Assembly: GCA_913020445.1 (NCBI GenBank)
Contig: CAJWAR010000013.1
Coordinates: 13,226 to 77,225, forward strand
From: an uncultured Rhodospirillaceae bacterium
Lineage (GTDB): Bacteria > Pseudomonadota > Alphaproteobacteria > Rhodospirillales > UBA2165
Length of the DNA stretch: 64,000 nt
Direction: 5' to 3'
A program made the position numbers and the translations under genes. Shown piece after piece: positions 4,664 through 31,643 of this stretch. How positions within the stretch are numbered: the stretch's first letter is position 1; every line of letters starts with the position of its first letter. The notes beneath the pieces are model-generated. The model was not told the origin of the DNA, searched no databases, and worked only from the letters and a program-made list of their open reading frames with translations.

Positions 4664-4694
4664 GGCGCTTAATTTATTGAGCGCCGTTTTTTTT
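4664..4694 (+). terminator. Rho-independent terminator after infA
   Basis: GGCGCT-taatttattg-AGCGCC followed by T8. Confidence 0.8.
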
Positions 4695-4719
4695 CGTAAA
4701 CTGGCAAAGGGCTTCACCG

Positions 4720-5310: not shown

Positions 5311-5318
5311 AGCGGCGG

Positions 5319-6749: not shown

Positions 6750-6763
6750 TTTAGAGACGAGAA

Positions 6764-6973: not shown

Positions 6974-7077
6974 GTAACCGGTCACGCGTTATTGATGTGT
7001 ACTGCGCCTGCCCACAATTGTTCTAAATTCCAAAATAGCGTAAGGCTGCACCTCGATTCGAATATCAAAAGGGGTGG

Positions 7078-8507: not shown

Positions 8508-8619
8508 GTAAGTTTCGAACACGGAGTTTTGATCCAAGGTGAGTTTCGGAAGGCTTGGCGGCGTGCGTCAAGCCGTCTTTAATATGAATATCACCGGCTC
8601 ATAAGAAAGAAACTCAACG

Positions 8620-9468: not shown

Positions 9469-9504
9469 TTATTATAGCGGCCTTTGCTGAATTGAGGGGG
9501 TGTT

Positions 9505-10461: not shown

Positions 10462-10470
10462 ACGGCGGAG

Positions 10471-11160: not shown

Positions 11161-11187
11161 ATCAATTTTTCCAATTTATCGCTTTGT

Positions 11188-11853: not shown

Positions 11854-11927
11854 GGGTGTTGAATAAGTGGCTAGGCGGGACTGGTCAATCGGATAGATCG
11901 GAGAAACAGAATTTGTCCGCTGTTTGG

Positions 11928-13321: not shown

Positions 13322-16300
13322 ATGGCTGATGAAACACTCACTGGTGCAGGTGGTCGCGACAATTTGAATATTGGAGCAGACGGCGAAGATAATGCACCTG
13401 AATCTTTTCTTGTTGAGGCCAATTCGAGCGATGCGGTAACGCTGCCGGATGGTTTTAACTTTGGTGATGCAAAATTTGAGCCTTCCGGACCAGACCTCGT
13501 TCTGACATCGCCGGATGGCAAACAAGTTGTTATCCAGGACTACTACGAACAAGATCCTCCCCCCGATCTGCATACCCCCGTAGGCGGCGAATTGGCTGGC
13601 TCCACTGCCGTTCGTCTGGCCCAGACAAATGCTCCGACGCAAGGTCAATTTGCGCAGGCTGCCCCCTCAGCCGATGCCCAGCCTATTGGCCAGGTCGAAA
13701 GTGTTTCCGGCACGGTGACTGCCATCCGTGCCGATGGTACGCGTGTTGAACTGCAGGTTGGTGATCCGGTTTTCCAAGGTGATGTTATGGAATCGGGAGC
13801 CAATGGCGCCGTAGGTGTCGTGCTGGCTGATGAAACCACTTTCTCGATGGCTGAAAACGGCCGCATGGTACTGGACGAAATGGTCTACGATCCGGGTACC
13901 CAGGAAGGCAACATTTCGATGTCGGTTCTCAAAGGCGTGTTTACCTTTGTGTCCGGTCAGGTTGCCAAGGTTGACCCCGACGCCATGGTTCTTAAAACAC
14001 CGGTGGCGACGATCGGTATTCGTGGTACGCAGGTTGGTATTGATCTAAGTGGTGAAGATCCCAACGGTATGAAAGTCGTTTTGATGGAAGAATCAGACGG
14101 CTTTGTCGGCGAAGTTGTGATTGCCAATAACGCTGGCATTCAGATTCTGAACCTGCCGGATCAAGGCGCCAGCGTTGCTAGTTCTAACACTGCGCCTTCA
14201 GAACCGCGTGTTTATAATCGCGCAGAAATTTCCGAATCTTTCCGTAGCGCGTTGGAATCACTGCCGACCACAGTTGGCACTGGTAACAATTATGGTGCCG
14301 ATGATCAGGAAAAAGAAGAGGAAGAACAGGAAGAACAGGAAGAACAGGAAGAGGAAGAAGGCGGAGAAGAGCAGGCTGAAGGCGAAGAATCTGGAGAAGA
14401 TGAGTTAGCCGAAGGCGAAGAAGGTGAGGGCGAAGGCGAAGAAGATTTAGATGACTTTGAAACCGCTGCCGGCGAAGGAGAAGAAGAGATAACCGACGAA
14501 GAAGCCGCTGCTGCCGCTGCAGCTGCACAGGCTGCTGCCGAAGCCGCTGCTGCCGAAGCTGCCGCCGCCGAAGCTGCTGCCGAAGCTGCCGCCGCCGCCG
14601 AGGCTGCCGCCGAAGCCGCTGCTCAAGCTGCCGCCGATGCCGCTGCCCAAGCTGCCGCCGAAGCTGCCGCCAGGGCCGCCGCCGCCGCCGCTGCTGCCGA
14701 AGCAGCCCGGTTAAAGGCCATTCAGGATGCTATTGATGCGGAAAATGCCGTGGCGGATACAGCTACGGTCTCGATTGAAGCTGCTGCCGGTGATGAAGAT
14801 GGAGAAATTGCGCTCGCCATCAGCGCCGGTATATCCGGATCTTCAACTGATGAAGTTCAAAGCATCAATATCACTAATATTCCGGATGGTTCGACACTGA
14901 CCTATCAAGATGCAAGTGGTGCCGATCAAACAATCTCAATTAGCGACGGTAGGGCCACACTTTCGCCAGCTCAATTGAGCGGCTTATCGATTACCCCGCC
15001 CTTGGATGAAAGTGCTGACTTTGCGCTATCGGTAAGCGCAACAAGTGTTGATCCGGACTCCGGCGTAACTGCGACAAGTGGTTCGGTTGGATTGGGAGTT
15101 ACCGTTGATGCGACAGTTGAGCCACCGGTTGTTGCTACAAATATTTCCATCGGCGACGAAGATACGGCAATTCCGGTCGATATCTCAATCGCCAATGTTG
15201 AAGCAGATGGCACCGTCACCAGCGTCACAATCAGCGGCATTCCGGAAGGCTCCGTCCTGATGAGCGGCGGTGAAGCGCATTCCTTAACTGGTCCTGATGC
15301 GAACGGATTTTATACTGCTGAAATCAGGCCTGACCAAGTCGATGGCCTGACCATTACGCCGCCGCAAGATGATGCGCACGATTTCTCGCTAAGCATTACC
15401 GCAACAGCAACGGATATTGATCCTGATATTATTGCCGAACATGCAGCGCTGGAAGTGGCCGCGACTGATGCAAGGGACGCCGCCGATGCAGCAAGAACGG
15501 CTGCTACTGAAGCACAAACCGCTGCCGATGATGCAGCAACCGTTTCAGAAGATGCTGCCACTGCATTGCAAGAAGCGATCGATAATGATGCACCTCAAGA
15601 AGAAATTGACGACTTGCAAGCAGCGGCGGACGCTGCTGCCGAAACGGCTACTGATTTGCAAACCGCGGCCGATACTGCAGATGAGCAGGCGACGGCGCTG
15701 GAAACGGCTGCCGACGAAGCCGAATCAGATGCTGCTGCATTGGCGCCAGCTGCCGCGGCCGCTACTGTGGTCGCCGCCGCTGAAGCTGCTCAAGTTGCTG
15801 CCGATGAAGCTGCTCAGGCAGCAGAGACGGCCGCCAGCGAACTTACCGTTGCCATCCAAGACGCCACTGATGCCTCTATTGCGGCTTCAGATGCTGCCTT
15901 AGCTTCAGCTGCAGCCGACGTTGCCTTGGCTGAAGCAATAGAAAATGAGGCTGACGAAGAAGAAATTGCCGAATTGCAATTGGCCGCTGATGCTGCAGCT
16001 GAGGCGGCTTTGGAAGCAGCCGCTACTGCCCAGGCGGCGGCCGATGCGGTTATTGATGCTCAAGCCAACAGTGAAAGCACCGCAACAGCTGCGACCAATG
16101 CGCAAGCTGTGGCCGATCTGGCCGCTGCCGATGCGGTCATCGCTGTCATCGAAGCCGATGAAGCGGAAGTTGACGGTTTGGTTACCAACACCAGTAAACC
16201 GATGGCGTTGGCTGTAACGGTCGATGCCACTGTTGATGCACCGGTTGTTACTCCGACCGCGGCGTCAGGCGATGAAGATACGGCAATCGATATCGATTTC

Positions 16301-19300
16301 ACGGCAACTGTTGATACCGAAGGTATTGCCGATGGCGAGTTAACGTCGGTAGAAATTAGTGGCATTCCAGTGGGTTCCGTTTTAACTGCTGATGGTACGT
16401 CGATGACGATTACCAACGGCAGTGTAACCTTGAACCCGGATCAGCTGGCTAATGTTCAGATTACCCCGCCCGAAGATGATGCCAATGATTTCACTGTACA
16501 GGTGAGAGCCACTGCAACGGATATCGATCCCGATTTGCTTATCGCCTCCGAAGATGCCGATGCGGCGCTGGCAGCTGCTATCACCGCTGAAGCAGACGCA
16601 ACAACTGCAGCCACTGCCGCCGCAGATGCCGCGACTGCTGCTGCTGATGCTGCCACTGCCGCCGCTGACGCCGCCGCCGAAGCCGCGACGATTGCCGCCG
16701 ACGCCGCGACGGCGCTCCAAGAAGCGATCGATAATGATGCGCCGCAGGAAGAAATTGATGCCTTGCAAATAGCCGCTGATGACGCCGAGGCAACTGCTGC
16801 TGAATTGCAAACCACTGCTGAAACTGCGGCACAGGCGAGTACCGATGCGGCGGATGCCGAAACTGCTGCTAATCAGGCATTGACTGATGCTCAAACAACT
16901 CTCAGTGAGGCTACCACCGCCGCCGCCGATGCTGCCGACGCGGTTACCAACGGCTATATTACCAACACCAGTGATCCGGTCGATCTCGACGTGACAGTAA
17001 GTGCGGTTGCCGATGTGCCGGACGTCACGGTGACTGCCGCTACAGGCGATGAAGATGCGGCGATCCCGTTGGATATTTCGGCCACCGGCGATTTCCCGGA
17101 TGATACGCTCGAGAGTTTTACCATCAGCGATATTCCGGCAGGTTCCGTGCTGATGAGCGGCGATACAGAAATAACCTTGACTGGTCCGGATTCAGAGACT
17201 GGTTTTTACAGTGCTGTGCTGTCGCCTGATCAAGTAACGGGTCTGACTATTACGCCACCTGCCGATGATGCCAATGATTTTGCCCTGCAGGTGAGTGCGA
17301 CGACATCTGACACTGATCCCGATACCAAAGATCAGGTTTTTGCCACCAGTGCACCAATTGCGTTAGCCGTTAGTGTTGCGGCCACGGTTGATGCGCCGGA
17401 TGTAGGTGTGACAGCGGCTGTCGGTGATGAAGATACCGCCATTGATATTGATTTCACGGCCTCCGTCGAAGCAACGGATGGTGACTTGCTGTCGGTTGCA
17501 ATCAGCGACATTCCAGTTGGCTCCGTTGTGACCGTTGATGGTACAGAGATGACGATTACAAACGGCACGGTTACCTTGACTCCAGATCAATTGGCGAATG
17601 TGCAAGTTACACCACCGCTAGATGACGCGGATGAATTTACATTGCAAGTTAGTGCGACGGCGACAGATACCGATCCCGATACCAGGATTGTGGTAACCAA
17701 CACCAGTGATCCGATTAATCTTGACGTCACGGTGAATGCCACGGGCGATGTTTCCGTTGATGTAAGAGATAATATAATTGACGAGGATTCGGGGCCGATG
17801 GTGCTGGATCTGACGGCGACAATCTCCGATATGGATGGTTCCGAGACACTTGCAGAAGTTGTCATTACTTTTGATGAAGTGCCGGAAGGTTTGGTCGTTA
17901 CTGGTGGCACCTTGGTCGGTAACGTTTTGACCATCCCAGCTGCCAATGTTGATTCGGTAACAATCGAAACACCTGAAAATTGGTATGGTGTTCTGGTCGG
18001 CTCAGCAATTGCCTACTCAAATGAAGGTGAAAGCTTATCCGACGGATTTACGATCACCATCAATGCGGTTGATGATGCACCAGAGGTAACGATCAATACC
18101 GGCGCGTCTATTGGCGAAGGCGAATTGGCAACAGTAACAGCCCAGATGCTGGATACCACCGATGTCGACACTTCTGATGACAATTTGACCTATACGGTAA
18201 GCGACAGTGGCACCGGCACGGTGCTGGTCGATGGCGTTGTGGCCACGACTTTCACCCAAGCTCAGTTGAATGCCGGCCTGGTGTCATATCAACATGATGG
18301 CACGGAAAATGAAGCAACCTCCTTCACCTTCACCGTAACCGATGGCACGACGATAGTTGGCCCGGAAACCTTCAACTTTGTCGTCAGCGACGGCAATATC
18401 GCACCGGTCGCTACCGACGATGTCGACACGGTTGGTGACGATATTGGTGATATTACCTCCGGCGACGTGTTGACCAACGATTTTGATCTTGATGGTGATG
18501 TCTTGAGCGTCACCCAGGTCGAATTTGAAGGCACGGTCTATACCTTCCCGGAAGGCGAAACCTCGCTCACCATCGAAGGAGATATCGGTACGCTGACCAT
18601 GAATAGCGACGGTACCTATGATTTCGTCAATAACGAAGGCATTAATGAAGGCACTGGTGAATTTGAATGGGCTGAAGGAACGCCGGATTGGGTTGATCCC
18701 TCAGAACAGCAGGAGCTTGATCCTGTTCAAGTCAACCAGGAAAATCTGACCATGCCGGAAGGTGGCGAATCCGTCACTGTGACTTTCCAAGGTGAAGCGG
18801 CCGGTTACCACAATGTGGTTGGTTTCTACAAAATTGATGCCGACGGCAATCCCTATGAACCACAGATTGCCTGGGACGACGCGTCACAGCAGGGCAGCGG
18901 CGGCGACTTAATTCCAGGCGAGTCTCAATTTACCATTGATGATTTGGGACCCGGCGAAAGTTTTGGTTTCTTTATCATTAAAAATGGCGCTAACGAATAC
19001 CCGTGGATCGACGACGTTCCCGATAACCATTACTTCGAGTTTAGTGCCGACGGTGAGTTGATCGAATACAACGAGGCAGGAAATCCGGTTGGTCAATCCG
19101 AAGGCGATGGCGACGATGATGACAACGAAGGCCATAATATCGACGTCGACGATATCTTTCATGCCGTTGACAACAATCTGACTGACAGTCTTTTAAATAC
19201 CGATAACATCACTCATACCAATTCCGGTATTGATCCCGAAACTGGTGATTTGATGATCGGTTTCGAAGACCTCTATGGCGGTGGCGACGAAGATTATAAC

Positions 19301-22300
19301 GATCTGATGTTCTCCGTTGAATATGAAGGAACACCGATCCCTGCTGAGGATGTCTTTACCTACACGGTGAGCGATGGCGAATTCACCGATACGGCTAATC
19401 TGACGCTTACGGTTGAACATGACAATGACGCGCCGGTCGCAATTAACGATTCCGGTTCGACCGATGAAGATTCCTCGGTGATTGTGGATGTCTTGGCGAA
19501 TGACACGGATGCCGATGACAATGACGTGCTGACGGTGACGGATGTCAGCCTGCCGGCTGGCGTTGACGGCACCGTGGAAATCGTTGAAATCGACGGTGTC
19601 ACGCAAGTGAAATTTACGCCAGGTGACAGTTTCGATGCTCTAAATACAGGTGACACGGATCAGGTTGAAATCACTTACACTGTTTCTGATAGCGAAGGCT
19701 TAACCGATACAGCTGTTGCGACGGTTACAATCACCGGCACCAATGATGGCCCGGTAGCAGAAGCAGTTATCGGCAGTGCCGGCGAAGATGATTTGTCTAT
19801 GACGGTCGATATTGCCGATCAGATCAGCGATCTCGATCACACTGACGCTGAATTGGCCATTTCAATCAATTTTGATGACGATGATGATAGCGATGTTGAT
19901 GTCGATTGGGATGTTAGCATCGTCGGTACAGAAGTTACTTTTACCCCGCCGGAAGACGCGTTTCAGTATTTAAATGAGGGCGAAACGGCGACCGATACCT
20001 TCACCTATACGGTTACTGATCCGGAAGGTGCTTCGGCCACCAATACCGTGACTTTGACAATTACCGGCTCTAATGACGTGCCGACAATTACCGGTGATAC
20101 CACTGGCGCAGCGACGGAAGATAGCGTTCTGACCGTGGATGGCCAGCTAAACATCGTTGATCCGGATACCGGTCAATCTCAGTTTGATGCGGTGTCTGAT
20201 GAAGTCGGGTCTTACGGTTCATTCTCAATGGATGCCAATGGCAACTGGACCTACGATTTAGATAATAACGCAGATATAGTTCAATCTTTGCCGGCTGGCG
20301 AGATCGTGACCGAGACTTTCACCGTGACCTCTGTCGATGGCACGGCTTCGGAAACAGTCACAGTGACCATTACCGGCACCAATGATGTGCCGAACATTAC
20401 CGGCGATTCCACTGGCGCAGTGACGGAAGACAGCGTTCTGTCAGTAGTTGGCCAGCTGAATATCATTGATCAAGATACTGGTGAATCTCAGTTTGATGCG
20501 GTTTCCGGTGAGGTCGGTTCATACGGATCATTCTCGATGGATGCGGCTGGCAATTGGACCTACGATTTAGACAATAATGCCGATGCGGTACAAGCTTTGC
20601 CGGCTGGCGAAGTCGTGACCGAGACATTCACCGTAACCTCTGTCGATGGCACTGCTTCGGAAACCGTTACCGTGACAATTACCGGCACCAATGACGTGCC
20701 GGTAATTACCGGTGATTCCACCGGCGCAGTGACGGAAGATAGCGTTCTGACCGTCGATGGCCAGCTGAATATTGTTGATCCGGATACCGGTGAATCTCTG
20801 TTTGATGCGGTTTCCGGTGATGCCGGTACATACGGTTCTTTCTCGATGGATGCGGCTGGCAATTGGACCTACGATTTAGACAATGATGCTGAAGCTGTCC
20901 AGGCTTTGGGTGTTGGCGACAGTGTAACCGAGACTTTTTGGGTGACCTCGGTTGATGGTACGGCGACGGAAGCTGTTTCAATTACCATCAATGGCACCAA
21001 TGACGCGCCAGAAGTATCGGGTGTTTTGGTGTACACCATGAATGAAGATGGTTCCTTGACCATCACCGAAGATCAATTGCTGTCCAATGCCAGCGATGTT
21101 GAAGGTGATAGTCTGAGCATCTCTAATCTGCAGACCGCTGCAGAAAATGGCACTATCACGGATAATGGCGATGGCACGTGGACTTATAATCCACCTGCGG
21201 ATTTCAATGGTCCGATCGCGTTTTCTTATGATATCAGTGATGGCACGGATACTGTGACTGCCGGAGCAATTGTTGATATTCATGCCGTTAATGATGCGCC
21301 GGATGCGGTTGACGATGTATTGGCGAGTGTTGCCGAAGATACATCCTTTACCTTCACGGCAGATGATTTACTCGGCAATGACACCGATGTTGATGGTGAT
21401 ACGCTCAGTATTATGGATATTGGTCAGCCTGATCATGGTTCCATTACCGACGATGGCAACGGCAATTACACTTATACACCGGAAGACAACTATAATGGCC
21501 CGGTCAGCTTTACCTATACTGCAACCGATGGCACCAGTGGTCATTCCTTTGTCAGCAATGACAGCCTCGCGACGGCCCAGGATATTGGCCGCGATAGTTT
21601 CGGCGTTGGTGAAGATGCGCTGGTTGATGATGACAGTCTGCCGCGTGTTCGGATTGAAGGGGCCGTTGACGAACCTGGCGATGTCGATTATTTCTCGTTT
21701 ACGCTACAGGACGGAGAGCAACTGCACCTCAATATAGATTCGGAAAATCAAAGTGACTCCGTTGACGCCTTAATCTTAATCTATGATGAAGCAGGCAATA
21801 TCGTCGCCTCCGTGGACGACTCTTTCGGCTCGATGGATCCATTTGGTACCTTTACGCCAACCGAAGGCGGCACCTATACGGTCGCCGTTCAGGCTTTCCC
21901 TTGGCAAAATGTTGAAGGTGCCACGGAAGAACAACTTGCTCTGGCCAGCGGCGATTATGTGCTAAATGCCAGTGTTGTGCCAACCGAGGACTCCACCGGT
22001 TTCGGTGACGCGCCGGCGACGATTTCCGATGTTGATACGGCAACTGATTCTGCATCTGTTACGTTTGATGTGGACTCAGTTAATGATGGCCCGGAAGCCG
22101 AAGCAGTTGTCGGCAGCGCTGGCGAAGATGATTTGTCTGTAACAGTGAATGTCGCTGATGAAGTAAGCGATGTTGACCATACTGATTCAGAACTTGTTAT
22201 CGCGGCAAATATGGGATCGACCGGCTGGACTGCAAACGTTGATGGCATGGATATCACGTTCACACCTCCAGAAGGCGCGTATAATCATTTAGCAGACGGC

Positions 22301-25300: not shown

Positions 25301-26944
25301 GTGGTCTTCACGGCGACCCAAATGTCAGGCAGCCAAAGTGACTTTAAAGTCCAAGGCGTTGAATATGAAACAGTTGGAACCTTGGTCGGTGACGGCGGTG
25401 AAGACGTCTTCACTTATACGGTCGCCGATGATCAAGGAGCTACAGATACCGCTGCTTTGACCATCACCGTTGATGGTGATGATGATCCCGCTGATGCGCC
25501 TGTACTGACGATCTCGGCAACCTTGGTTGAAGCAATTCCAACCGAAACGCTATTTACCAGTACGTTTGATGACGGCGCTGCTGATGGCTTCTCCTATGTT
25601 GATGACGCTTTCCGCGACACCGATGAAGGCGATTACGCCAAAGGCCAGATTAAAGATGGTGGACATCACGATGACGATGGGCGCTTACGGGTCGAGCTTG
25701 GGGGTAAAGATGATGACGATATTACCGACATGTCTGGCGGGTTTGAGCAAAGCTTTACCGTTGATGAAGATGGTGCGGGCTCCATTACGTTCACTTATAA
25801 AATCGATATGGACAGCCATTATGAAGATGACGAATACGCCGAAGTATTGGTCAGCATTGATGGCGAACTTGTCAATATTGCCGGTAATGACTATGTCACG
25901 CGTGTCTCCGGTGGTGATGATATCGGTTGGACGACAGTAACCATCGACCTTGGAGATTTGGATGCCGGTGATCATACTGTTATGATTGGTGGCTATAACA
26001 ATAAGAAGACCTATCACAACGAGAAAACCAAAATCGATTTTGATGATGTTTCTTTGAATGTCGGATCAAGCGATCCGGGCAGCACCTTTGAAGTCGATAT
26101 TACCGCAGCATTGACGGATGATACAGAAACCTTGTCAGCGGTCACGATTGACGAGCTGCCGGAAGGTGTCGCGTTTGTCGGCATTGACCAAAATGACGAT
26201 GGCACATGGACGCTGACAGCGGATGATCTTGTTGATTTGACCATGACGGTGCCGCCGGGTACCGATGATTTTGATATTAGCGCGTCGGTTACCTCGACGG
26301 AAGACAATGGAAATTTTGCCACGACAACGACCTCTATCACTGTTGATGTCCCGGTAATTGATGCCGAGGACCATGATCGTATGGGCAGCTCATCTGACGA
26401 TACCATTGTCGGCATGGATCGCGACGACGATGCCGATGCTGATGCCGGAGGTGATGATATCCTCTACGGCGGCGCCGGTGATGATACCATCGACGGCCAA
26501 GGCGGCGATGATGTGATATTCGGCGGCTCCGGTGTTGACTATATTGATGGCGGTGATGGCGGCGACGTTATCTACGGCGGCAGCGACGACGATGTTATTA
26601 TCGGTGGTGAAGGCAACGACCAGCTTTATGGTGGCTCCGGCGATGATGAATTTATCTTCAGCCTCGGCGATGGCGAAGACACTGTCTTCGATTTTGATAA
26701 TGGCGACGTTCTGACCTTCGAAGGCATCGATCTCAATGACGGCGATGCTGTCGAGTTCGATACCGATGGCGATGATGTTGTTGTCACGGTTATCGGCAGC
26801 AACAATGAGCAGTCTAAAGTGACGTTGAAGGATGCTGCCAAAGACATGGATGATGATGAACGCCAAAATGTCGGAGATGGCTACTCTGTTACCGATACCG
26901 GTGACGGCTCCATCAATATCATTGTCGATACTCCCGGCGGCTAA
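13322..26944 (+). CDS. Giant (4540 aa) RTX-type, T1SS-secreted repetitive adhesin (LapA/BapA class)
   Basis: Single uninterrupted 13,623-nt ORF with GAGGGGG upstream of the ATG. Layout, N- to C-terminal: an N-terminal region with a FecR-like beta-rich segment (GQVESVSGTVTAIRADGT...TIGIRGTQVGI); a polyacidic linker with TAAG; poly-Ala/Glu; five 'GDEDTAI...ITPP.DD..DF.L.V.AT' domains; many VNDAP/TNDGP cadherin/VCBS-like units; a DUF4114-like segment (GFEDLYGGGDEDYNDLMFSVEY); a PPC-like segment (DVDYFSFTL...GTYTVAVQAF); a dystroglycan-type cadherin-like segment; and C-terminal GGxGxD nonapeptides with a T1SS-type tail. Confidence 0.93.
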   Translation: MADETLTGAGGRDNLNIGADGEDNAPESFLVEANSSDAVTLPDGFNFGDAKFEPSGPDLVLTSPDGKQVVIQDYYEQDPPPDLHTPVGGELAGSTAVRLAQTNAPTQGQFAQAAPSADAQPIGQVESVSGTVTAIRADGTRVELQVGDPVFQGDVMESGANGAVGVVLADETTFSMAENGRMVLDEMVYDPGTQEGNISMSVLKGVFTFVSGQVAKVDPDAMVLKTPVATIGIRGTQVGIDLSGEDPNGMKVVLMEESDGFVGEVVIANNAGIQILNLPDQGASVASSNTAPSEPRVYNRAEISESFRSALESLPTTVGTGNNYGADDQEKEEEEQEEQEEQEEEEGGEEQAEGEESGEDELAEGEEGEGEGEEDLDDFETAAGEGEEEITDEEAAAAAAAAQAAAEAAAAEAAAAEAAAEAAAAAEAAAEAAAQAAADAAAQAAAEAAARAAAAAAAAEAARLKAIQDAIDAENAVADTATVSIEAAAGDEDGEIALAISAGISGSSTDEVQSINITNIPDGSTLTYQDASGADQTISISDGRATLSPAQLSGLSITPPLDESADFALSVSATSVDPDSGVTATSGSVGLGVTVDATVEPPVVATNISIGDEDTAIPVDISIANVEADGTVTSVTISGIPEGSVLMSGGEAHSLTGPDANGFYTAEIRPDQVDGLTITPPQDDAHDFSLSITATATDIDPDIIAEHAALEVAATDARDAADAARTAATEAQTAADDAATVSEDAATALQEAIDNDAPQEEIDDLQAAADAAAETATDLQTAADTADEQATALETAADEAESDAAALAPAAAAATVVAAAEAAQVAADEAAQAAETAASELTVAIQDATDASIAASDAALASAAADVALAEAIENEADEEEIAELQLAADAAAEAALEAAATAQAAADAVIDAQANSESTATAATNAQAVADLAAADAVIAVIEADEAEVDGLVTNTSKPMALAVTVDATVDAPVVTPTAASGDEDTAIDIDFTATVDTEGIADGELTSVEISGIPVGSVLTADGTSMTITNGSVTLNPDQLANVQITPPEDDANDFTVQVRATATDIDPDLLIASEDADAALAAAITAEADATTAATAAADAATAAADAATAAADAAAEAATIAADAATALQEAIDNDAPQEEIDALQIAADDAEATAAELQTTAETAAQASTDAADAETAANQALTDAQTTLSEATTAAADAADAVTNGYITNTSDPVDLDVTVSAVADVPDVTVTAATGDEDAAIPLDISATGDFPDDTLESFTISDIPAGSVLMSGDTEITLTGPDSETGFYSAVLSPDQVTGLTITPPADDANDFALQVSATTSDTDPDTKDQVFATSAPIALAVSVAATVDAPDVGVTAAVGDEDTAIDIDFTASVEATDGDLLSVAISDIPVGSVVTVDGTEMTITNGTVTLTPDQLANVQVTPPLDDADEFTLQVSATATDTDPDTRIVVTNTSDPINLDVTVNATGDVSVDVRDNIIDEDSGPMVLDLTATISDMDGSETLAEVVITFDEVPEGLVVTGGTLVGNVLTIPAANVDSVTIETPENWYGVLVGSAIAYSNEGESLSDGFTITINAVDDAPEVTINTGASIGEGELATVTAQMLDTTDVDTSDDNLTYTVSDSGTGTVLVDGVVATTFTQAQLNAGLVSYQHDGTENEATSFTFTVTDGTTIVGPETFNFVVSDGNIAPVATDDVDTVGDDIGDITSGDVLTNDFDLDGDVLSVTQVEFEGTVYTFPEGETSLTIEGDIGTLTMNSDGTYDFVNNEGINEGTGEFEWAEGTPDWVDPSEQQELDPVQVNQENLTMPEGGESVTVTFQGEAAGYHNVVGFYKIDADGNPYEPQIAWDDASQQGSGGDLIPGESQFTIDDLGPGESFGFFIIKNGANEYPWIDDVPDNHYFEFSADGELIEYNEAGNPVGQSEGDGDDDDNEGHNIDVDDIFHAVDNNLTDSLLNTDNITHTNSGIDPETGDLMIGFEDLYGGGDEDYNDLMFSVEYEGTPIPAEDVFTYTVSDGEFTDTANLTLTVEHDNDAPVAINDSGSTDEDSSVIVDVLANDTDADDNDVLTVTDVSLPAGVDGTVEIVEIDGVTQVKFTPGDSFDALNTGDTDQVEITYTVSDSEGLTDTAVATVTITGTNDGPVAEAVIGSAGEDDLSMTVDIADQISDLDHTDAELAISINFDDDDDSDVDVDWDVSIVGTEVTFTPPEDAFQYLNEGETATDTFTYTVTDPEGASATNTVTLTITGSNDVPTITGDTTGAATEDSVLTVDGQLNIVDPDTGQSQFDAVSDEVGSYGSFSMDANGNWTYDLDNNADIVQSLPAGEIVTETFTVTSVDGTASETVTVTITGTNDVPNITGDSTGAVTEDSVLSVVGQLNIIDQDTGESQFDAVSGEVGSYGSFSMDAAGNWTYDLDNNADAVQALPAGEVVTETFTVTSVDGTASETVTVTITGTNDVPVITGDSTGAVTEDSVLTVDGQLNIVDPDTGESLFDAVSGDAGTYGSFSMDAAGNWTYDLDNDAEAVQALGVGDSVTETFWVTSVDGTATEAVSITINGTNDAPEVSGVLVYTMNEDGSLTITEDQLLSNASDVEGDSLSISNLQTAAENGTITDNGDGTWTYNPPADFNGPIAFSYDISDGTDTVTAGAIVDIHAVNDAPDAVDDVLASVAEDTSFTFTADDLLGNDTDVDGDTLSIMDIGQPDHGSITDDGNGNYTYTPEDNYNGPVSFTYTATDGTSGHSFVSNDSLATAQDIGRDSFGVGEDALVDDDSLPRVRIEGAVDEPGDVDYFSFTLQDGEQLHLNIDSENQSDSVDALILIYDEAGNIVASVDDSFGSMDPFGTFTPTEGGTYTVAVQAFPWQNVEGATEEQLALASGDYVLNASVVPTEDSTGFGDAPATISDVDTATDSASVTFDVDSVNDGPEAEAVVGSAGEDDLSVTVNVADEVSDVDHTDSELVIAANMGSTGWTANVDGMDITFTPPEGAYNHLADGETAVETFTYTVTDPDGLESTNTVVMTINGANDGFTVDGSVAAGTLEDDGVAFNIFDAITITDPDATDTHSINGYTQPQNGTVTVSALGAVVFSPNIDPTTGESVFNTMGVGDTATETFTYTVDDGSGGTSIETATITITGTNDAPVVTTAIQDGTTSEDQAYSYDASANFADVDNGDSLIYSATLDDGSALPDWISIDPVTGEISGVPDNDDVGSLNIKVVATDESGWAADDTYQLDVINTNDGPVAVNDIGTVDEDASVTLDVLANDTDVDGIALSVTDVSLPEGVDGTVEIVEVDGVTQVKFTPGETYNSLAVNESEDVIISYTISDGAGGSDSAIATVTVTGSNDGFTVIGDAADDMLEDELSTTFNVFDDITVSDGDASDTHSITTYSQPDNGTVEVLTDGTVTYTPPAGHFNSLAEGETAIESFTYTIVDGNGAESLETATVTITGTNDGPVAIGGSESDLLEDIAFAGQLAATDVDGDTLTFSLADNGGPAHGSITIGEDGSYSYQPDLNYSGTDSFTFEVSDGHGGTDTATVTLSVTGVADDPIVVVSNETGNEDQWTQLNLDADLTDTDGSETLSVLISNVPDGALLNPGTNLGGGEWTVSPEQLHLVCILPPENFNGDINLTLAATSTEADGDIATVEQNFTVTVDPVNDAATITGDDTGSVTEDSILAVSGDLDVTDPDTGESIFDAANAVGDYGSFTMDVNGNWTYNLDNDNADVQALGVGESMSETFTVSSVDGTASETVTVTINGTNDGPVAVDDSNTVDDTADSVIGSVTANDSDVDGDTLNVTEVEFNGTTHSFPEGEDSLTIVGDHGTLVMNSDGSYEYTRSGEGGGTASEIVEAGGYGSSEADWTSAGVSISAFDFGTSYTDGNGDFDASLADDSVVVTSQGLGVEGTQGGAQASTQIEYDPNSGDSEALALTFDTSVSSADVTVARLYHGEGSDGEQGMWQAYDADGNLVGSGEIDDETVAYDGSSNVGTLNIDLGGTAFQTVVFTATQMSGSQSDFKVQGVEYETVGTLVGDGGEDVFTYTVADDQGATDTAALTITVDGDDDPADAPVLTISATLVEAIPTETLFTSTFDDGAADGFSYVDDAFRDTDEGDYAKGQIKDGGHHDDDGRLRVELGGKDDDDITDMSGGFEQSFTVDEDGAGSITFTYKIDMDSHYEDDEYAEVLVSIDGELVNIAGNDYVTRVSGGDDIGWTTVTIDLGDLDAGDHTVMIGGYNNKKTYHNEKTKIDFDDVSLNVGSSDPGSTFEVDITAALTDDTETLSAVTIDELPEGVAFVGIDQNDDGTWTLTADDLVDLTMTVPPGTDDFDISASVTSTEDNGNFATTTTSITVDVPVIDAEDHDRMGSSSDDTIVGMDRDDDADADAGGDDILYGGAGDDTIDGQGGDDVIFGGSGVDYIDGGDGGDVIYGGSDDDVIIGGEGNDQLYGGSGDDEFIFSLGDGEDTVFDFDNGDVLTFEGIDLNDGDAVEFDTDGDDVVVTVIGSNNEQSKVTLKDAAKDMDDDERQNVGDGYSVTDTGDGSINIIVDTPGG
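14300..14503 (+). repeat. Polyacidic low-complexity linker containing the TAAG motif (14462..14473)
   Basis: In aa 327-394, 41 of 68 residues are D/E by my count. The stretch includes (GAAGAACAG)x3. T381-A382-A383-G384 is encoded by ACC GCT GCC GGC. Confidence 0.9.
14504..14749 (+). repeat. Poly-Ala/Glu (AAAE-type) low-complexity tract of about 80 aa
   Basis: AAAAAAAAQAAAEAAAAEAAAAEAAAE...AAARAAAAAAAAEAARLKAIQDAIDAENA, encoded by GCN/GAA-rich DNA. Confidence 0.9.
15431..16175 (+). repeat. Ala/Asp/Glu/Thr-rich helical insertion 1 in the adhesin
   Basis: About 248 aa between '...ATATDIDPD' and 'VTNTSKPMALAVTV'. Contains ALQEAIDNDAPQEEIDDLQAAADAAAE and the variant LAEAIENEADEEEIAELQLAADAAAE. 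Confidence 0.8.
16535..16950 (+). repeat. Ala-rich helical insertion 2 in the adhesin
   Basis: About 138 aa between '...ATATDIDPD' and 'ITNTSDPVDLDVTV'. Repeats ALQEAIDNDAPQEEIDALQIAADDAE, and the DNA is near-identical to 15570..15620. Confidence 0.8.
20072..20998 (+). repeat. Three tandem 309-bp (103-aa) VCBS/cadherin-like units
   Basis: The NDVP anchors at 20072, 20381, 20690 and 20999 are exactly 309 bp apart. Units 1 and 2 differ at 13 of 103 residues by my count. A diverged fourth copy lies at about 24280-24590. Confidence 0.9.
26452..26655 (+). repeat. RTX Ca2+-binding nonapeptide repeats (GGxGxDxxx)
   Basis: LYGGAGDDTIDGQGGDDVIFGGSGVDYIDGGDGGDVIYGGSDDDVIIGGEGNDQLYGGSGDDEFIF. Confidence 0.92.
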
Positions 26945-26972
26945 TCTATAGAAATTAAAATATGCGAGGTTT

Positions 26973-27005
26973 AAAAAGGGCTGCCCATAGCGGGTGGCCC
27001 TTTTT
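26973..27005. terminator. Bidirectional hairpin terminator between convergent genes
   Basis: AAAAAGGGC-15 nt-GCCCTTTTT, with A-run and T-run flanks. The right arm overlaps the TAA of the minus-strand gene. Confidence 0.6.
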
Positions 27006-28296
27006 ACTTTTTGGCGCGTGAATCGATCATGTCACGGAAGGCGTTGGTCACCCGCTCCATATATGGCCTGAGGTAGTCGAAATTATCGGCATGATCAAAA
27101 GAATGACGCATGGCCGGATTCATTTCGAAGATCAGAATTTTGCCTTCCTCGGTCACATTAAAATCGATACCAAGGAAATCGAGGCCAACCAGATCGGGCA
27201 GTTTTTCCAGCCGTTGATAAATTTCATCGCCCAAGTAAGCACGCGGGTCAGCCATGAAGGATTTTTCTTCTTCGATCATCCAATCATGCTCGGCCATTAG
27301 CGTTTTGCGGTTGGAGCCATGCACGTTCCACGTCGCATCTATATGCAACACAACGGGATAGAGCTTTCCATCAATACTGAAAAACCGCATTTTGCGATGA
27401 TATTTCTGGTGGAAGAAATTCTCGATAAACTGAATCAGATAAAGCTCTGCGCCGGAAAGTTCCTCGGCGGCGGTGACAAATTCTTCCAAACTGTCACATT
27501 TGATAAAAGTGCGTCCGGTATGCGTACCGGTTTCGCGGATCAGCACGGGAAATTCGAACTTATGTTCTTCAAGCAATTTGGTGAGGTCGTATTTATTTGA
27601 ACTTTTTGCCGGCACCCGGATGGATTTACCCATCTCAATGCCATCGATATCGAGTAAACGTTGATAGTTGTTGTCCCGGGTCGATTCCATCACACGGGTT
27701 GGATCATTGATAACGGACAGCGTTGGATTATGTTCGAGAAATTGGGCGGCGGTCTGCAATGATAGGAGTTCAACATCCGGGTCCGCAATGGTGTTAATCA
27801 CAACATCGAATTTTGGGATACGGTTGGGGTGCAGCAGATTATTGTTCAGCACCAAATAACTGATGGTCGTGTAATCCGCCGCGTCCCAGAAATAGCGGCT
27901 CGAGAAATTACCGCCGCGCAGCTTCAGCTTATGCTGGCCTTTGCGGCTTTGGCCGAGCGTGTAGTAAGCGTTTTGCACGCCCCGCAGGCGGAGAATTCGG
28001 GCACGTGGTTCGGTAACGCAGGTCGAAACAGTTATCGGATTGCGCTTAACGCCGGCGCGGAGCGTGCGGCGCGCGTTCCTTTCATTGCCACGTGATTTTT
28101 GGATGGCGGACAAATTAAAATAAGATGGCAGATGCGTTGGATCCAGCTCAATGGCGCGTTCAAATATATTAGCAGCTCGATCTAAATCGCCGGAGCGAAT
28201 GAGCGTTGAGCCAAATTGACTGTAAAGAGTTGAGCTTTCAGGCGTGAGGGCGAGGGCGCGCTGGAACATCGCAACGGCTTCCGGAAACCGGTCCAA
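27004..28296 (-). CDS. TPR repeat + ATP-grasp domain protein (N-terminus unresolved)
   Basis: TPR repeats at the N-terminus. The C-terminal half is ATP-grasp-like (...VLIRETGTHTGR...LYLIQFI...GIDFNVTEEGKILIFEMNPAMRH). The TTG at 28296 falls in the middle of a TPR repeat. The frame stays open with TPR-like sequence up to the TGA at 28501..28503, with no ATG/GTG/TTG in between. Confidence 0.75.
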   Translation of the reverse strand: MDRFPEAVAMFQRALALTPESSTLYSQFGSTLIRSGDLDRAANIFERAIELDPTHLPSYFNLSAIQKSRGNERNARRTLRAGVKRNPITVSTCVTEPRARILRLRGVQNAYYTLGQSRKGQHKLKLRGGNFSSRYFWDAADYTTISYLVLNNNLLHPNRIPKFDVVINTIADPDVELLSLQTAAQFLEHNPTLSVINDPTRVMESTRDNNYQRLLDIDGIEMGKSIRVPAKSSNKYDLTKLLEEHKFEFPVLIRETGTHTGRTFIKCDSLEEFVTAAEELSGAELYLIQFIENFFHQKYHRKMRFFSIDGKLYPVVLHIDATWNVHGSNRKTLMAEHDWMIEEEKSFMADPRAYLGDEIYQRLEKLPDLVGLDFLGIDFNVTEEGKILIFEMNPAMRHSFDHADNFDYLRPYMERVTNAFRDMIDSRAKK

Positions 28297-28500
28297 TTCC
28301 TTGAGGCAAAGCGCCAGACCACCATAAGCGCTGGCGTTATCTTTGACTTTGGCGATAAAGGCGCGGAATTTAGTGGCGGCACCCTCATGATCACCAGCGT
28401 GTCTAAGCTCATTAGCCGCTGCCAGCTCAGTGGATGACGGTTCTTGTTCCGGAGCAACAGTTGGCTGTTTATTGGGAGTGTCGGAAGACCCGCGTTCCTT

Positions 28501-30636
28501 TCACCCGTTCCTTAGAAAATGCGCCCACTTCTCGGCACCGCCGTGATTCTCCAGCAAATTAAGCAGGGCAGCGACAACCGCGCGGTCATATTGACTGCCG
28601 GATTCTTCAAGTAAAATATTTCCGGCCGCTTCGATGGAGATGCCGTCGGAGCCATCACTTGGATTACACAAGCCCAAAAAGGCATTGGCGACGGCGACAA
28701 TTTTAGCCGGCAGCAATATCTGACCGCTTTGCAAGCCTGCCGGGCCGGAACCGTCATCAGCTTCAAAGCTTTGACGGATAGCTTCAACAACCGGGCCTTC
28801 AAAATCGATTTTTTCAAGCAATTCGGCGGAGGATGAAACGATATCTTCGCCGTCAACAATGGAGCCGAGATTGAGCAGCGCGCCGGCAAACTCGGCTGTG
28901 TCGGTATCGATTTTATTGGCTTCCATATCTTCGGCGATGGCGCGGGCAACCTCACCAACATGATTGGAGCGGGCAGAGGTAGTCGGATCACGCCGGTCAA
29001 CGATAGCTGCCAAGGTGCTGACCAATTGCCGCAAACGGTTCTCGCTTTTGATCTGTTCTTGCGAGAACTCCGAGATGTCATCCATGATCATCAAAATGCC
29101 AGGCGGATGATCGCGGTCGCCTCTAAGTGGAATATGGTCGGAGCGAATAACCTGCAACGAACCATCTTCCTGCTCAAATCTTTGAATGTTACTAGCGCGA
29201 ATTTTCTGCACTGATTCCTCAACGCCTTGATCTTCAGCATCGGCAAAATCAGCCAGCATCGTTTTGTTGATCTCGGCGTAGTATTTGGCTTTGACCGGTC
29301 CCATGACGCCAGCCATGGTTTTGCCAAACATTTCCTCGGTTTGAATGCCGGCGGCTTTGGCAGCGGGTTCGTTGGAGAACGTATAGCTCGTGGTGCCGTC
29401 AACGGCGACGATGTGGGTCGATTGGCTGTTGGTGATAACGCGCATAAATTTAGAGATATTTTCGAAGCGTTCGGACGAAATCCGGAACTTTTCAGCCGCT
29501 GCGGCGGCCCTTAAAGAGGTGCCGTGACGCCAGATCGCAATCATCGCAATGGCAACGCCAACAATGATGAGGACAAAGACCACCAATATTGTCTGCAGGC
29601 GCGTCTCATTAGCGGATAACGCCTCGGCACGGGAAATTTTGCGCACCAATATCCAGGGGAGATCAGCGATCGGGCGCGACGTGACCAACACTTCTTCGCC
29701 CGAGTAATCCCGCTTGATGGCAAAGCCGCCAGGTTTATCGAGGGCAAAAGCGGCGGCCAAATCCGGCGTATCAAACGCCATTGAGCGTTCAAGTGGTTTT
29801 GCACCATCTTTGAGAGGAGTCAAATATTCCACAGCGTTGCCAGATTTGCGGACGAGATAGGTTTCGGTGGTTTTATTGGTATCACCCGGTTGTTTCATAA
29901 GATCGAACAGTTCTTCATCAATAACGCGAACGCCAAGCGCAATGCCCAATCCTTTGGCGCCGGCATCCTGTTGCACACCGTAAACCGGCAACGAAAAACC
30001 CATGGTAGGTTCGTTTGTCGCCCCTTTATACATATCAATAATTGCCGGTTCACCATCAAAGCTCTTGCCAATCGCGGAGCGTTGCTTGCCCGAAAGAGGG
30101 GGCATGGCGGGTGTCAGTACAATAGGTTTGCCATCCGAATCCAGCAGCGCAATCCCGGCCGTGCCGGCGCGCTCAACATTTGAATTCGTCTCAGCTTGAG
30201 GTGCGAGGGGAACAAATCCGTATCTATCTGCAACTGCCACTAATAAATTTCGCAGATATCCCTGTTGGGCTGTCGCGTCGGTGACGCCTGATTTGTCGTT
30301 ATTTGCTTCGGCAAGTTCAGACATATAAAGCTGCAAGGACTGATTCTCAGTCAATTCGGCAATCGATTCTAGATTGGATTCAGTCCAGTCGTTGACGTTG
30401 CTAACCTGATTATCGGCAACGATGCCGAGCTTGATCTGCCACTCATTGAGCGCCCGTTGACGTTCGCTTTCGACGAACCGGAAGGAGAAAAATACACCAG
30501 CGCCGATGACCGCGATCATGACAACAATAATTATGCCGACAATGAGATTAACGCGGCCCTTGCGGGTTTCTTCTTCGGCCTCTTTATCTTTATCAACCGC
30601 CTCTGTTTCGTCGTTCTTTTGTGGCTCTTCGGCCAT
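28501..30636 (-). CDS. Membrane sensor: TM, periplasmic Cache-like domain, TM, PAS-like domain, degenerate HD-GYP domain
   Basis: GGGAGG RBS. TM1 is LIVGIIIVVMIAVIGAGVFFSF, followed by a ~290-aa periplasmic segment (...EEVLVTSRPIADLPWILVRKISRAEAL), then TM2 ILVVFVLIIVGVAIAMIAIW. The C-terminus aligns by eye to HD-GYP, but 'HD' is NL (28867..28872) and 'HHE..DG.GYP' is SFEADDGSGPAG (28735..28770). Confidence 0.8.
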   Translation of the reverse strand: MAEEPQKNDETEAVDKDKEAEEETRKGRVNLIVGIIIVVMIAVIGAGVFFSFRFVESERQRALNEWQIKLGIVADNQVSNVNDWTESNLESIAELTENQSLQLYMSELAEANNDKSGVTDATAQQGYLRNLLVAVADRYGFVPLAPQAETNSNVERAGTAGIALLDSDGKPIVLTPAMPPLSGKQRSAIGKSFDGEPAIIDMYKGATNEPTMGFSLPVYGVQQDAGAKGLGIALGVRVIDEELFDLMKQPGDTNKTTETYLVRKSGNAVEYLTPLKDGAKPLERSMAFDTPDLAAAFALDKPGGFAIKRDYSGEEVLVTSRPIADLPWILVRKISRAEALSANETRLQTILVVFVLIIVGVAIAMIAIWRHGTSLRAAAAAEKFRISSERFENISKFMRVITNSQSTHIVAVDGTTSYTFSNEPAAKAAGIQTEEMFGKTMAGVMGPVKAKYYAEINKTMLADFADAEDQGVEESVQKIRASNIQRFEQEDGSLQVIRSDHIPLRGDRDHPPGILMIMDDISEFSQEQIKSENRLRQLVSTLAAIVDRRDPTTSARSNHVGEVARAIAEDMEANKIDTDTAEFAGALLNLGSIVDGEDIVSSSAELLEKIDFEGPVVEAIRQSFEADDGSGPAGLQSGQILLPAKIVAVANAFLGLCNPSDGSDGISIEAAGNILLEESGSQYDRAVVAALLNLLENHGGAEKWAHFLRNG

Positions 30637-30836
30637 TCAATTGCCTCCCGAATTCACTCTTTCGCTTAAGCTACTCTAAATAGAAGGTTTTTTGAAGCAC
30701 GGGATGTGAATAAATATGATATTAATCACAGACCGTTAAAGCGAAATCGCGTAATATTCAATATCGGGTGAATATTGGGGTTGTGACTATATTTCTAAGG
30801 CATCTGAGGTTAGATTAGAATAATCGGTTAATAAAT

Positions 30837-31643
30837 TTGGTTGTGATTGATTTGAAGCAAATTAAATATATTGCTGGCTTAGGTATTTTAGCCGCTGCTG
30901 CACTCGTTATTGGTGCCAGTGAAAACTCGGCTGCGCCACTAACGCCGGTGACAACAGATATTCAGCGATCGGCCAACCAAGCAGGCTATGTTGAGGTGCG
31001 TAAACGTAAGCGCCGTTCCAAAAAGCGCCGCCGCGGTAGATCGGTCGCGACCGCGAGTGCGGCGCGCGCTAAATCGGCCAAAGGTAAGTTATCGACAAAC
31101 GCATTGTTATTTGGCACCGCGGAAACTCAATCGACAAATTTCAAGCCGTTCAAGAAATGGCGCGGTGCGATGGCGAAAACCGCCAAGGAGCAAACCGATC
31201 TCGGTGCTTTTAAGAAAAAATTTGGTAAATGGGTAAAGTTTCTCGATACCTTGAAAGGCAAAGATCAGCTCACCCAGATCAAAGCCGTTAACAAGTTCAT
31301 GAACCAGGCCAAATATATCCTTGATATAAAAAACTGGGGCATCAAGGATTACTGGGAAAGCCCAGGTGAGTTTTTCGCCAAATTCGGTGATTGTGAAGAT
31401 TACTCCATCGCCAAATATATGGGGCTCAAATATCTTGGCTTTAATCCGGAAAATATGCGTGTCGTTGCGGTCAAAGATCTCAATCTCAAAGTCGGCCACG
31501 CGATCTTAGCGGTCTATTACAATAAGCGTATTCTGGTGCTCGACAATCAAATCAAAATCGTCGCTGACAGCCGTAAAATCCGCCACTACCAGCCGGTCTA
31601 TTCGATCAATGAAAAATACTGGTGGCGGCACCGGGTCGGGTAG
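30837..31643 (+). CDS. Periplasmic bacterial transglutaminase-like cysteine proteinase (BTLCP, LapG family)
   Basis: Signal-like IAGLGILAAAALVIGASENSAA. Triad contexts: GDCEDYSIAKY (C186, 31392), VGHAILAVYY (H221, 31497), LVLDNQ (D236, 31542). The start is uncertain (TTG 30837 or GTG 30843). A polybasic tract RKRKRRSKKRRRGR lies at 30999..31040. Confidence 0.82.
   Translation: MVVIDLKQIKYIAGLGILAAAALVIGASENSAAPLTPVTTDIQRSANQAGYVEVRKRKRRSKKRRRGRSVATASAARAKSAKGKLSTNALLFGTAETQSTNFKPFKKWRGAMAKTAKEQTDLGAFKKKFGKWVKFLDTLKGKDQLTQIKAVNKFMNQAKYILDIKNWGIKDYWESPGEFFAKFGDCEDYSIAKYMGLKYLGFNPENMRVVAVKDLNLKVGHAILAVYYNKRILVLDNQIKIVADSRKIRHYQPVYSINEKYWWRHRVG

Follow-up and report, generated by a model that had tools for sequence, protein, structure and literature searches.

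Two described systems for the regulated release of a surface adhesin are closest to the locus studied here. The Lap system of Pseudomonas fluorescens Pf0-1 consists of the type I secretion system (T1SS) adhesin LapA, the protease LapG and the receptor LapD (PMC3032545, PMC3032553, PMC4359373). The Dvh system of Desulfovibrio (Nitratidesulfovibrio) vulgaris Hildenborough consists of DvhA, DvhG and DvhD, encoded by DVU1012, DVU1019 and DVU1020, respectively (PMC10990149, PNAS 2024; PMC13090378, Nat Commun 2026). Karbelkar et al. (2024) found that DvhD adjoins DvhG, a protease of the BTLCP family, and, in response to cyclic di-GMP (c-di-GMP), controls the DvhG-dependent release of DvhA; reconstitution in P. 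fluorescens was used in that work (PMC10990149). DvhG cuts DvhA at a di-alanine, and DvhD governs DvhG via c-di-GMP (PMC10990149, PMC13090378). The cleavage site lies near residue 105-110 in DvhA and LapA, at residue 106 in DvhA. Structures of DvhD are available as PDB entries 9RBZ, 9RC0 and 9RC2 (Font et al. 2026, PMC13090378). For the pair of DvhD and DvhG, the modelled interface on dCache overlaps with the path of the substrate. In DvhD, the HD-GYP domain is catalytically dead (HD is SQ and HH is MN) yet binds c-di-GMP, and DvhD also accommodates 3'3'-cGAMP (PMC13090378). The affinity of DvhD for c-di-GMP is sub-micromolar. Here, we analysed neighbouring adhesin, receptor and protease genes on a 64,000-nucleotide stretch from an uncultured Rhodospirillaceae bacterium (contig CAJWAR010000013.1, positions 13,226 to 77,225), which is called the window below.

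The locus is probably a Dvh-type, Lap-like module for regulated adhesin release in uncultured marine Rhodospirillaceae. The Lap-like reading given to it by a first-pass annotation is correct, and its architecture is not new: this type of system is already known, and the locus is a marine alphaproteobacterial copy of the Desulfovibrio DvhA/DvhG/DvhD switch. The membrane partner with a Cache domain and an HD-GYP-derived module, which that annotation recognised and left unplaced, has been characterised as DvhD together with DvhG and DvhA (PMC10990149; PMC13090378). Four points appear to be new, namely the scale of the family in Rhodospirillales, the unlinked T1SS genes, a composite retention module followed by an L-x-x-F-x-TAAG motif, and a sub-clade in which the c-di-GMP pocket is erased.

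The receptor and its relation to DvhD

The receptor gene lies divergent from the protease gene and encodes a protein of 711 amino acids. As had been claimed, a transmembrane segment, a dCache region of about 293 periplasmic residues, a second transmembrane segment, a PAS domain and a degenerate HD-GYP domain follow one another, which is also the order in DvhD with its inactive HD-GYP domain. The motifs of active HD-GYP phosphodiesterases are all replaced in the window receptor (HD by LN, HH by SF and GYP by G-P), and the HD and HH metal ligands are gone in both the window receptor and DvhD. In the domain profiles, the periplasmic region matched dCache_1 with E 5e-11 and 43 bits, just under the cut-off of 45 bits, the PAS match was weak, and the HD_5 match was limited to the C-terminal half of the profile (positions 82-170). 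No LapD_MoxY_N, HAMP, GGDEF or EAL domain was found with Pfam in the receptor or elsewhere in the window, and in this the receptor differs from that of the Lap system.

When the receptor was compared with all PDB sequences using phmmer, only 9RC0 (E 4.5e-18, across PAS and HD-GYP) and 9RBZ were found at E<=0.01, and the score against the cytoplasmic fragment of DvhD was 68 bits. A profile of 23 family members scored 165.7 bits against DvhD (E 1e-47), while other HD-GYP structures, 5Z7C, 4MCW, 4R8Z and 3TM8, scored 90, 64, 48 and 35 bits, respectively. An AlphaFold2 model of the receptor had a mean pLDDT of 70, with values of 80-90 in the dCache domain and most of the HD-GYP part, and a Foldseek search of the PDB with this model returned the DvhD structures 9RC0 (1e-11), 9RBZ (3e-10) and 9RC2 at the top. 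The periplasmic structure 9RC2 was matched with E 9.6e-10 and a TM-score of 0.76, and the next dCache structure followed at 3.8e-6. Neither the single receptor nor the family profile detected 9RC2 in the PDB sequence search; it was found by fold search only. The DvhD crystal structures are the best sequence or fold matches for the three modules of the receptor, in the case of dCache by fold only. The two receptors differ in that the window protein is only about 23-28% identical to DvhD in the cytoplasmic part and 14% identical in dCache. Among the members of the window's family, the periplasmic domain is strongly conserved, and many of its alignment columns are invariant.

The protease

The protein encoded on the other side of the divergent intergenic region begins with a hydrophobic segment followed by a basic linker and carries the catalytic contexts GDCEDY (C186), GHAIL (H221) and VLDN (D236) exactly as claimed in the first-pass annotation. 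Its membership of the BTLCP family was confirmed by profile (Peptidase_C93, 57 bits against a cut-off of 27). In 67 of 67 family members, G-D-C-E-D (with the Ca-binding D/E flanking the cysteine C186), H221 and D236-N are invariant. The matches among PDB sequences at E<=0.01 were the LapG structures 4U65 and 4FGO (E 1e-22). We also aligned the protease with DvhG, using the sequence given in Supplementary Data 2 of Font et al. 2026 (PMC13090378). The DvhG core was matched with 127 bits and 38% identity over 189 amino acids, including the N-terminal LFGT..KW and C-terminal YSxNExYxWxH stretches, whereas LapG of P. fluorescens was matched with 93 bits and 38% identity over 141 amino acids. These alignments place the protease nearer to DvhG than to LapG, and, as in the Dvh system, it is encoded beside the receptor and resembles DvhG along the full core. 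The arrangement differs from Dvh in that the receptor and protease genes are divergent and not in one operon.

The adhesin and its predicted cleavage site

The giant adhesin of 4540 amino acids has the C-terminal GGxGxD repeats, the plug-like N-terminal region, which is of the retention type, and the TAAG motif that had been reported for it, and an identical 4540-residue product was called on independent marine metagenome contigs. Pfam domains of the adhesin were Cadherin_4 (15), Big_9 (15), Cadherin_5 (7 stretches) and He_PIG, as well as HemolysinCabind at residues 4409-4442 and a FecR domain at residues 154-244.

The N-terminus is, as far as profile and pairwise matches go, a composite retention-type module of about 310 residues. 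Its prefix, GPDLVLTSPDGKQVVIQDYY, was 48% identical over 29 amino acids to GNDLVFTTFPEGGQVIVSDFF of DvhA (E 1e-5, residues 50-77), and there was a weak match to the BapA prefix (E 0.033). Residues 123-187 matched positions 4-68 of the 145 positions of the retention profile retention_LapA (NF033682) with 39.3 bits and E 7e-10 at a cut-off of 50 bits. Residues 120-229 matched the N-terminus of MpIBP, the ice-binding adhesin of Marinomonas primoryensis (PDB 5IX9, E 1e-4); unlike in MpIBP, the window domain runs into a longer FecR-type domain, up to about residue 310, and is preceded by the DvhA-like prefix. Like DvhA, the adhesin combines a retention-type domain that carries a DvhA-like prefix with a [T/A/P]AAG site. 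It differs from DvhA in the size of the retention module, which is about threefold that of DvhA, and in the predicted cut site, which is near residue 382, compared with 106 in DvhA.

A single TAAG is present in the adhesin at residues 381-384, within DLDDFETAAGEGEEE. From the composition of the protein, 0.78 TAAG would be expected and one was observed, so that the motif was rejected as evidence on its own, and its significance rests only on conservation in orthologues. F-x-TAAG was found at the same relative position in seven of nine orthologues with an intact N-terminal open reading frame (ORF) adjoining dvhD-like/BTLCP pairs; the chance probability of F-x-TAAG in a stretch of 150 amino acids is about 7e-4. 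The contexts were DLDDFETAAG at 381 in the window, DLDEFETAAG at 318 in locus L001, AAAFETAAG at 361 in L038, PAEFTTAAG at 319 in L043, FDDFATAAG at 330 in L053, LDDFSTAAG at 348 in L056, and LNEFQTAAG at 342 in L068, a locus of the complete Rhodospirillales chromosome OZ240674.1. Among 56 sufficiently long N-terminal homologues, about 24 carry L-x-x-F-[ED]-TAAG or a close variant (F-x-TAAG), and 27 carry the looser pattern [FLIMWY]-x-[TAP]AAG. The acidic linker before the motif differs in length and sequence among the orthologues, while the motif itself is conserved. Unlike in the Lap system, the F-E-TAAG site follows this acidic linker and no DP motif precedes it.

Residues 393-470 of the adhesin (window 14498-14731, + strand), just after the predicted cut site, are a low-complexity, probably helical region rich in Ala, Glu and Gln. 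Further stretches of this kind are located at residues ~720-850 and ~1095-1210. The first, of about 80 residues, is positioned where a segment would thread the outer-membrane channel.

Distribution and gene order of the family

At least 558 relatives of the receptor were found in the protein collection. The top 120 were 50-91% identical and about 690-770 amino acids long, apart from two shortened entries; few of them had a source name, and those that did were almost all metagenome-assembled genomes (MAGs) of Rhodospirillales or Rhodospirillaceae. A scan of species-representative genomes with two family-specific peptide patterns gave 160 receptor relatives, of which the best 80 were almost all from marine and groundwater MAGs of Rhodospirillales, Rhodospirillaceae, Thalassospiraceae or Magnetovibrio.

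A survey of the neighbourhoods of the receptor genes placed a BTLCP gene beside the receptor gene, divergently upstream, in 68 of 84 loci; most of the remaining loci were truncated contigs. The C-terminus of an RTX adhesin was encoded convergently, downstream of the receptor gene, in 52 of the 84. Taken together, the matches to DvhD, the protease closer to DvhG, the synteny of the three genes and the conserved F-x-TAAG uphold the earlier proposal that the locus follows the logic of the Lap system with a different membrane partner. By analogy, the locus would share with that system a T1SS adhesin with an N-terminal retention module, a Ca-dependent BTLCP acting at a di-alanine, and an inner-membrane receptor.

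Neither a T1SS gene nor a GGDEF/EAL gene was found by Pfam and gene calls among the annotated ORFs of >=150 amino acids of the window, in agreement with the first-pass annotation, and no T1SS gene was found in the 10 kb beyond the 3' end of the window. Scanning every window ORF of >=200 amino acids for Walker-A/LSGGQ gave no ATP-binding cassette (ABC) ATPase, and when the scan was applied to the window and the 84 loci, one ABC ORF was found, in locus L069. There, a TolC-like OEP, an ABC protein with a C39-like domain and HlyD are encoded directly beside the BTLCP-receptor pair (3737-12085). In a neighbour-joining tree with DvhD as the root, L069 takes the most basal position in the family, which supports an ancestral link to the T1SS. 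In the Dvh system, the T1SS genes are in the same operon or neighbourhood.

DvhD homologues of Kiloniella, Sneathiella, Pelagibius, Denitrobaculum, Fodinicurvata and Oceanibacterium are listed in Supplementary Data 1 of Font et al. 2026. The criteria for the list were a BLASTp E<1e-50 to DvhD with >=85% coverage, and T1SS ABC genes lie near many of the homologues (PMC13090378). Like the bacterium of the window, these listed Alphaproteobacteria are marine and have DvhD-DvhG pairs. None of these genera occurred among the best 80 loci of the window's family, which is weak evidence since the scan used only the two family-specific peptide patterns. The window's family is, as far as sequence scores indicate, probably a more distant branch than the listed homologues, because the window receptor reached only 68 bits against the cytoplasmic fragment of DvhD, compared with the threshold of E<1e-50 used for the list.

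Three side observations concern individual loci. The MAG BS150m-G3 (JADHSV01) carries two separate dvhD-like/BTLCP pairs, L026 and L061, one of which has a degenerate nucleotide site (N582, N650 and R652); these paralogous systems may divide labour. In L001 (5605-12115) and L002 (4487-19151), IS66, IS91 and IS1595 transposases and a DruA (Druantia-like) gene lie between the BTLCP gene and the receptor gene. The adhesin gene of L002 is split by a Transposase_mut element.

Erosion of the c-di-GMP pocket

In DvhD, c-di-GMP is contacted at the canonical site by Y523, L577, K582, Y621, M646, R650, Y652 and E668 and at the bridging site by K520, P567 and R569, and each of the R650A, P567T and Y652A/R653A variants abolishes stabilisation by c-di-GMP (PMC13090378). 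Most members of the family studied here retain F/Y523, P567, L577, R582, M646, R650 and Y/W652, and Y621, the Tyr of GYP, is absent throughout the family. Because these contacts are retained, c-di-GMP is the likely input for most of this alphaproteobacterial family, in which the L030 and P0114 proteins are examples with an intact pocket. Y523 and Y652, the base-stacking Tyr, were both lost in one clade. Within that clade, the window receptor and its 91% and 73% identical orthologues also have a deletion of 19 amino acids, by which L577 and K582 are lost and the lid loop is cut down from 27 residues to 9, and R650 and R653 are replaced by serine. At the DvhD contacts, the window receptor has T523, L646, S650 and G652, lacks P567, L577, K582 and Y621, and keeps E668 and an arginine at the position of K520. 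The DvhD contact set is thus found, apart from Y621, in most other family members and not in the window receptor, and the loss of the lid loop, R650, Y652 and Y523 in the window sub-clade, together with that of Y621 in the whole family, is a further difference from the Dvh system. The analogy with a c-di-GMP receptor that had been drawn for the membrane partner is therefore not simply transferable, since the binding residues of DvhD are mostly lost here.

The receptor gene is under purifying selection despite the erosion of the pocket. Against the 91% identical orthologue (L005), dN/dS (the ratio of nonsynonymous to synonymous rates) was 0.047 for the whole gene and 0.052 when only the HD-GYP-like domain was considered. 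Against L006 and L007, which are 69-73% identical, the HD-GYP-like domain had the highest dN of all domains (0.32-0.44 compared with 0.10-0.26), which fits a functional shift. We tentatively suggest that in one marine Rhodospirillaceae lineage a DvhD-type receptor gave up c-di-GMP sensing, still controls the adhesin-releasing protease and was rewired to another input. Hypothetical inputs are a periplasmic ligand at dCache, a cue sensed by PAS, or the TPR-ATP-grasp ligase encoded downstream of the receptor gene in the clade without Y652.

We regard it as rather unlikely that the locus is instead a standard Dvh system, in which c-di-GMP or another cyclic dinucleotide, for example 3'3'-cGAMP, still binds to the receptor at the bridging site or in a pocket that has been remodelled, and high nucleotide levels keep the protease inactive. 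Such binding would fit the contacts kept by most of the family and the three positions at which the window receptor still has an arginine (K520), E668 and a leucine (M646), as well as the strong purifying selection on the HD-GYP-like domain and the ability of DvhD itself to take up 3'3'-cGAMP. It does not fit the replacement or removal of R650, Y652/R653 and P567, the deletion that takes away L577 and K582, the absence of Y523 and Y621, or the high dN of the HD-GYP-like domain in the comparison with L006 and L007.

Alternative explanations

Several results weigh against the assignment of the locus to a Dvh-type module. About half of the sufficiently long N-terminal homologues have no F-x-TAAG in the available sequence, and the cut site is about 380 residues from the N-terminus, not about 105. 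No linked T1SS genes were found in the window or in 83 of the 84 related loci, so that the export route is a prediction. Three scores are modest: the retention domain is under its NCBIfam cut-off (39 compared with 50 bits), the protease reached 98.5 bits against the cut-off of 320 of the LapG equivalog NF045674, far below it and in this different from the Lap system, and the receptor model is moderate with a pLDDT of 70 and residues 592-613 below 50. Despite the loss of the DvhD-type contacts, the receptor may also bind a nucleotide in another mode.

The low equivalog score would also agree with a protease whose substrate is not the adhesin encoded nearby; the proximity of the adhesin would then be incidental. 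HvyA is reportedly an alphaproteobacterial BTLCP that acts on capsule control in Caulobacter, so BTLCPs with other roles exist in this class, and the lone TAAG of the adhesin is no more than chance would give. We consider such a substrate very improbable here. The genes for protease, receptor and RTX adhesin show synteny in dozens of species, the position of F-x-TAAG is conserved among orthologous adhesins, and the basal relative L069 has a T1SS beside the pair. No capsule genes adjoin the protease gene in the Pfam annotation of the window ORFs. In pairwise comparisons, the protease matched DvhG best, and DvhG targets an adhesin di-alanine (PMC13090378).

It is just as improbable that the receptor of the window sub-clade is a decaying remnant, with a protease that is unregulated or controlled only transcriptionally: the pocket was eroded stepwise along the lineage, Y652 first and then the loop and R650, but with a dN/dS of about 0.05 a pseudogene was rejected, the ORF is intact in several independent assemblies, and the periplasmic domain has kept its many invariant columns.

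The TPR-ATP-grasp gene

A gene downstream of the receptor gene encodes a predicted cytoplasmic protein with TPR and ATP-grasp parts, which is an addition compared with the Dvh system. Its AlphaFold2 model had a pLDDT of 92.9, and the fold was nearest to LysX/ArgX, RimK and Ddl (D-Ala-D-Ala ligase). Of the 14 informative loci in the clade without Y652, 13 carry the gene, compared with one of 44 loci with an aromatic residue at this position (Fisher p 3e-10). In the neighbour-joining tree, the TPR-positive, Tyr-less loci form essentially one clade, so that the correlation reflects one or two evolutionary events and was rejected as independent support.

In L003 and L004, the TPR-ATP-grasp gene starts 4-7 bp past the receptor stop codon and the homologue is about 69 amino acids longer at the N-terminus, with more TPR. 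In the window, a gap of 204 bp (28297-28500) separates the receptor stop codon from the longest TPR-ATP-grasp ORF, and the gap is the same in the 91% orthologue L005. The longer and nearly contiguous homologue of L003 and L004 indicates that the TPR region was shortened in the window clade. A distant homologue from Kordiimonadaceae lies in an unrelated gene context, which shows that the TPR-ATP-grasp family is not specific to adhesin loci. We treat the gene as accessory, and its part in the adhesin switch is hypothetical.

Features of the locus and surrounding genes

The coordinates of the features are summarised in Table 1.

Table 1. Positions of the genes, domains and motifs of the adhesin-release locus in the 64,000-nucleotide window (aa, amino acids).
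Feature	Position in the window	Strand	Basis
Giant T1SS-type adhesin, DvhA/LapA-like, 4540 aa	13322..26944	+	ORF, Pfam domains
N-terminal prefix-like segment, aa 38-80, resembling the DvhA retention domain	13433..13561	+	Pairwise alignment
LapA/MpIBP-type retention domain extending into FecR-like beta domain, aa 120-310	13679..14251	+	NF033682, 5IX9, Pfam FecR
Acidic Glu-rich low-complexity linker, aa 328-378	14303..14455	+	Read from sequence
F-E-T-A-A-G, predicted BTLCP cleavage motif, inferred scissile bond A382/A383	14456..14473	+	Translation; orthologue conservation
RTX GGxGxD nonapeptide block, aa 4383-4442, preceding the C-terminal secretion region	26468..26647	+	Five GGxGxD; HemolysinCabind; RTX-family matches
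Cytoplasmic TPR + ATP-grasp ligase, 430-aa ORF (called 421 aa), downstream of the receptor gene	27004..28296	-	TPR Pfam; weak RimK NCBIfam
DvhD-like inner-membrane receptor, 711 aa	28501..30636	-	PDB sequence and fold matches
Doubly degenerate HD-GYP-like domain, aa 546-700	28537..29001	-	HD_5 positions 82-170; motif reading
Cytoplasmic PAS domain, aa 396-525	29062..29451	-	Weak PAS/PAS_4; aligned to DvhD PAS in 9RC0
Receptor transmembrane segment 2, aa 347-369	29530-29598	-	
Periplasmic dCache domain, aa 54-346	29599..30477	-	dCache_1; fold match 9RC2
Receptor transmembrane segment 1, aa 31-53	30478-30546	-	
Divergent intergenic region, 200 bp, between receptor and protease genes; presumed promoters	30637..30836	.	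Gene coordinates
DvhG/LapG-type BTLCP cysteine protease, 268 aa: signal-peptide-like N-terminus, basic linker, C93 core	30837..31643	+	Pfam, PDB, DvhG alignment

The genes around the locus are coenzyme A (CoA), beta-oxidation, TRAP-transporter and housekeeping genes. The locus is embedded among acyl-CoA/steroid-like catabolic genes (window 31659-63052), a block of acyl-CoA dehydrogenases, thiolases, ChsH2-like and MaoC hydratases, enoyl-CoA hydratases, AMP-ligases, a TRAP transporter and two IclR regulators. The GC content of the adhesin locus was not distinct from that of the surrounding catabolic genes (0.48-0.55). A Sel1-repeat protein (seven repeats, 336 amino acids) is encoded divergently from the adhesin gene at 11928-12938 on the minus strand; the 3' end of its gene shares 4 bp with the start of a gene for a CoA-transferase subunit, and the Sel1-repeat gene is not conserved beside the adhesin in locus L001. 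The window's own genes were present identically on Tara Oceans and JGI marine metagenome contigs.

Proposed mechanism

Following LapA, MpIBP and DvhA, the adhesin of 4540 amino acids would be exported, C-terminus first, by a T1SS encoded elsewhere. The composite N-terminal module (residues ~38-310), which combines the DvhA-like prefix with a LapA/MpIBP-like, FecR-type beta domain, would fold in the periplasm, could not pass the outer-membrane channel and would thus anchor the protein. For release, the exported Ca-dependent BTLCP is predicted to cut L-x-x-F-E-T-A|A-G at A382/A383, after the acidic linker. The divergently encoded DvhD-like receptor would gate the protease through its periplasmic dCache domain, as proposed from DvhD. 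In the window sub-clade, the HD-GYP-like domain would most likely be no more than a dimeric conformational module, and the input may come from elsewhere, with PAS, a periplasmic ligand of dCache or the TPR-ATP-grasp protein as hypothetical sources.

Significance

DvhDG-type release, characterised only in Desulfovibrio, has a wide distribution among uncultured Rhodospirillales from marine and groundwater samples, where it is represented by at least 160 species-level genomes and by hundreds of proteins from metagenomes. The pair is usually detached from T1SS genes, so surveys based on operon context or on LapD/LapG models would miss the family. The L-x-x-F-x-TAAG motif behind a large composite retention module widens the definition of BTLCP substrates. 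If the tentative loss of c-di-GMP sensing in the window lineage is true, its receptor would be a natural Lap/Dvh-type inside-out switch uncoupled from cyclic dinucleotides. The series of variants, from a DvhD-like pocket to one that is almost erased under purifying selection, allows a direct test of an old question, namely what a degenerate HD-GYP domain adds apart from binding nucleotides, and in which other ways such switches can be operated.

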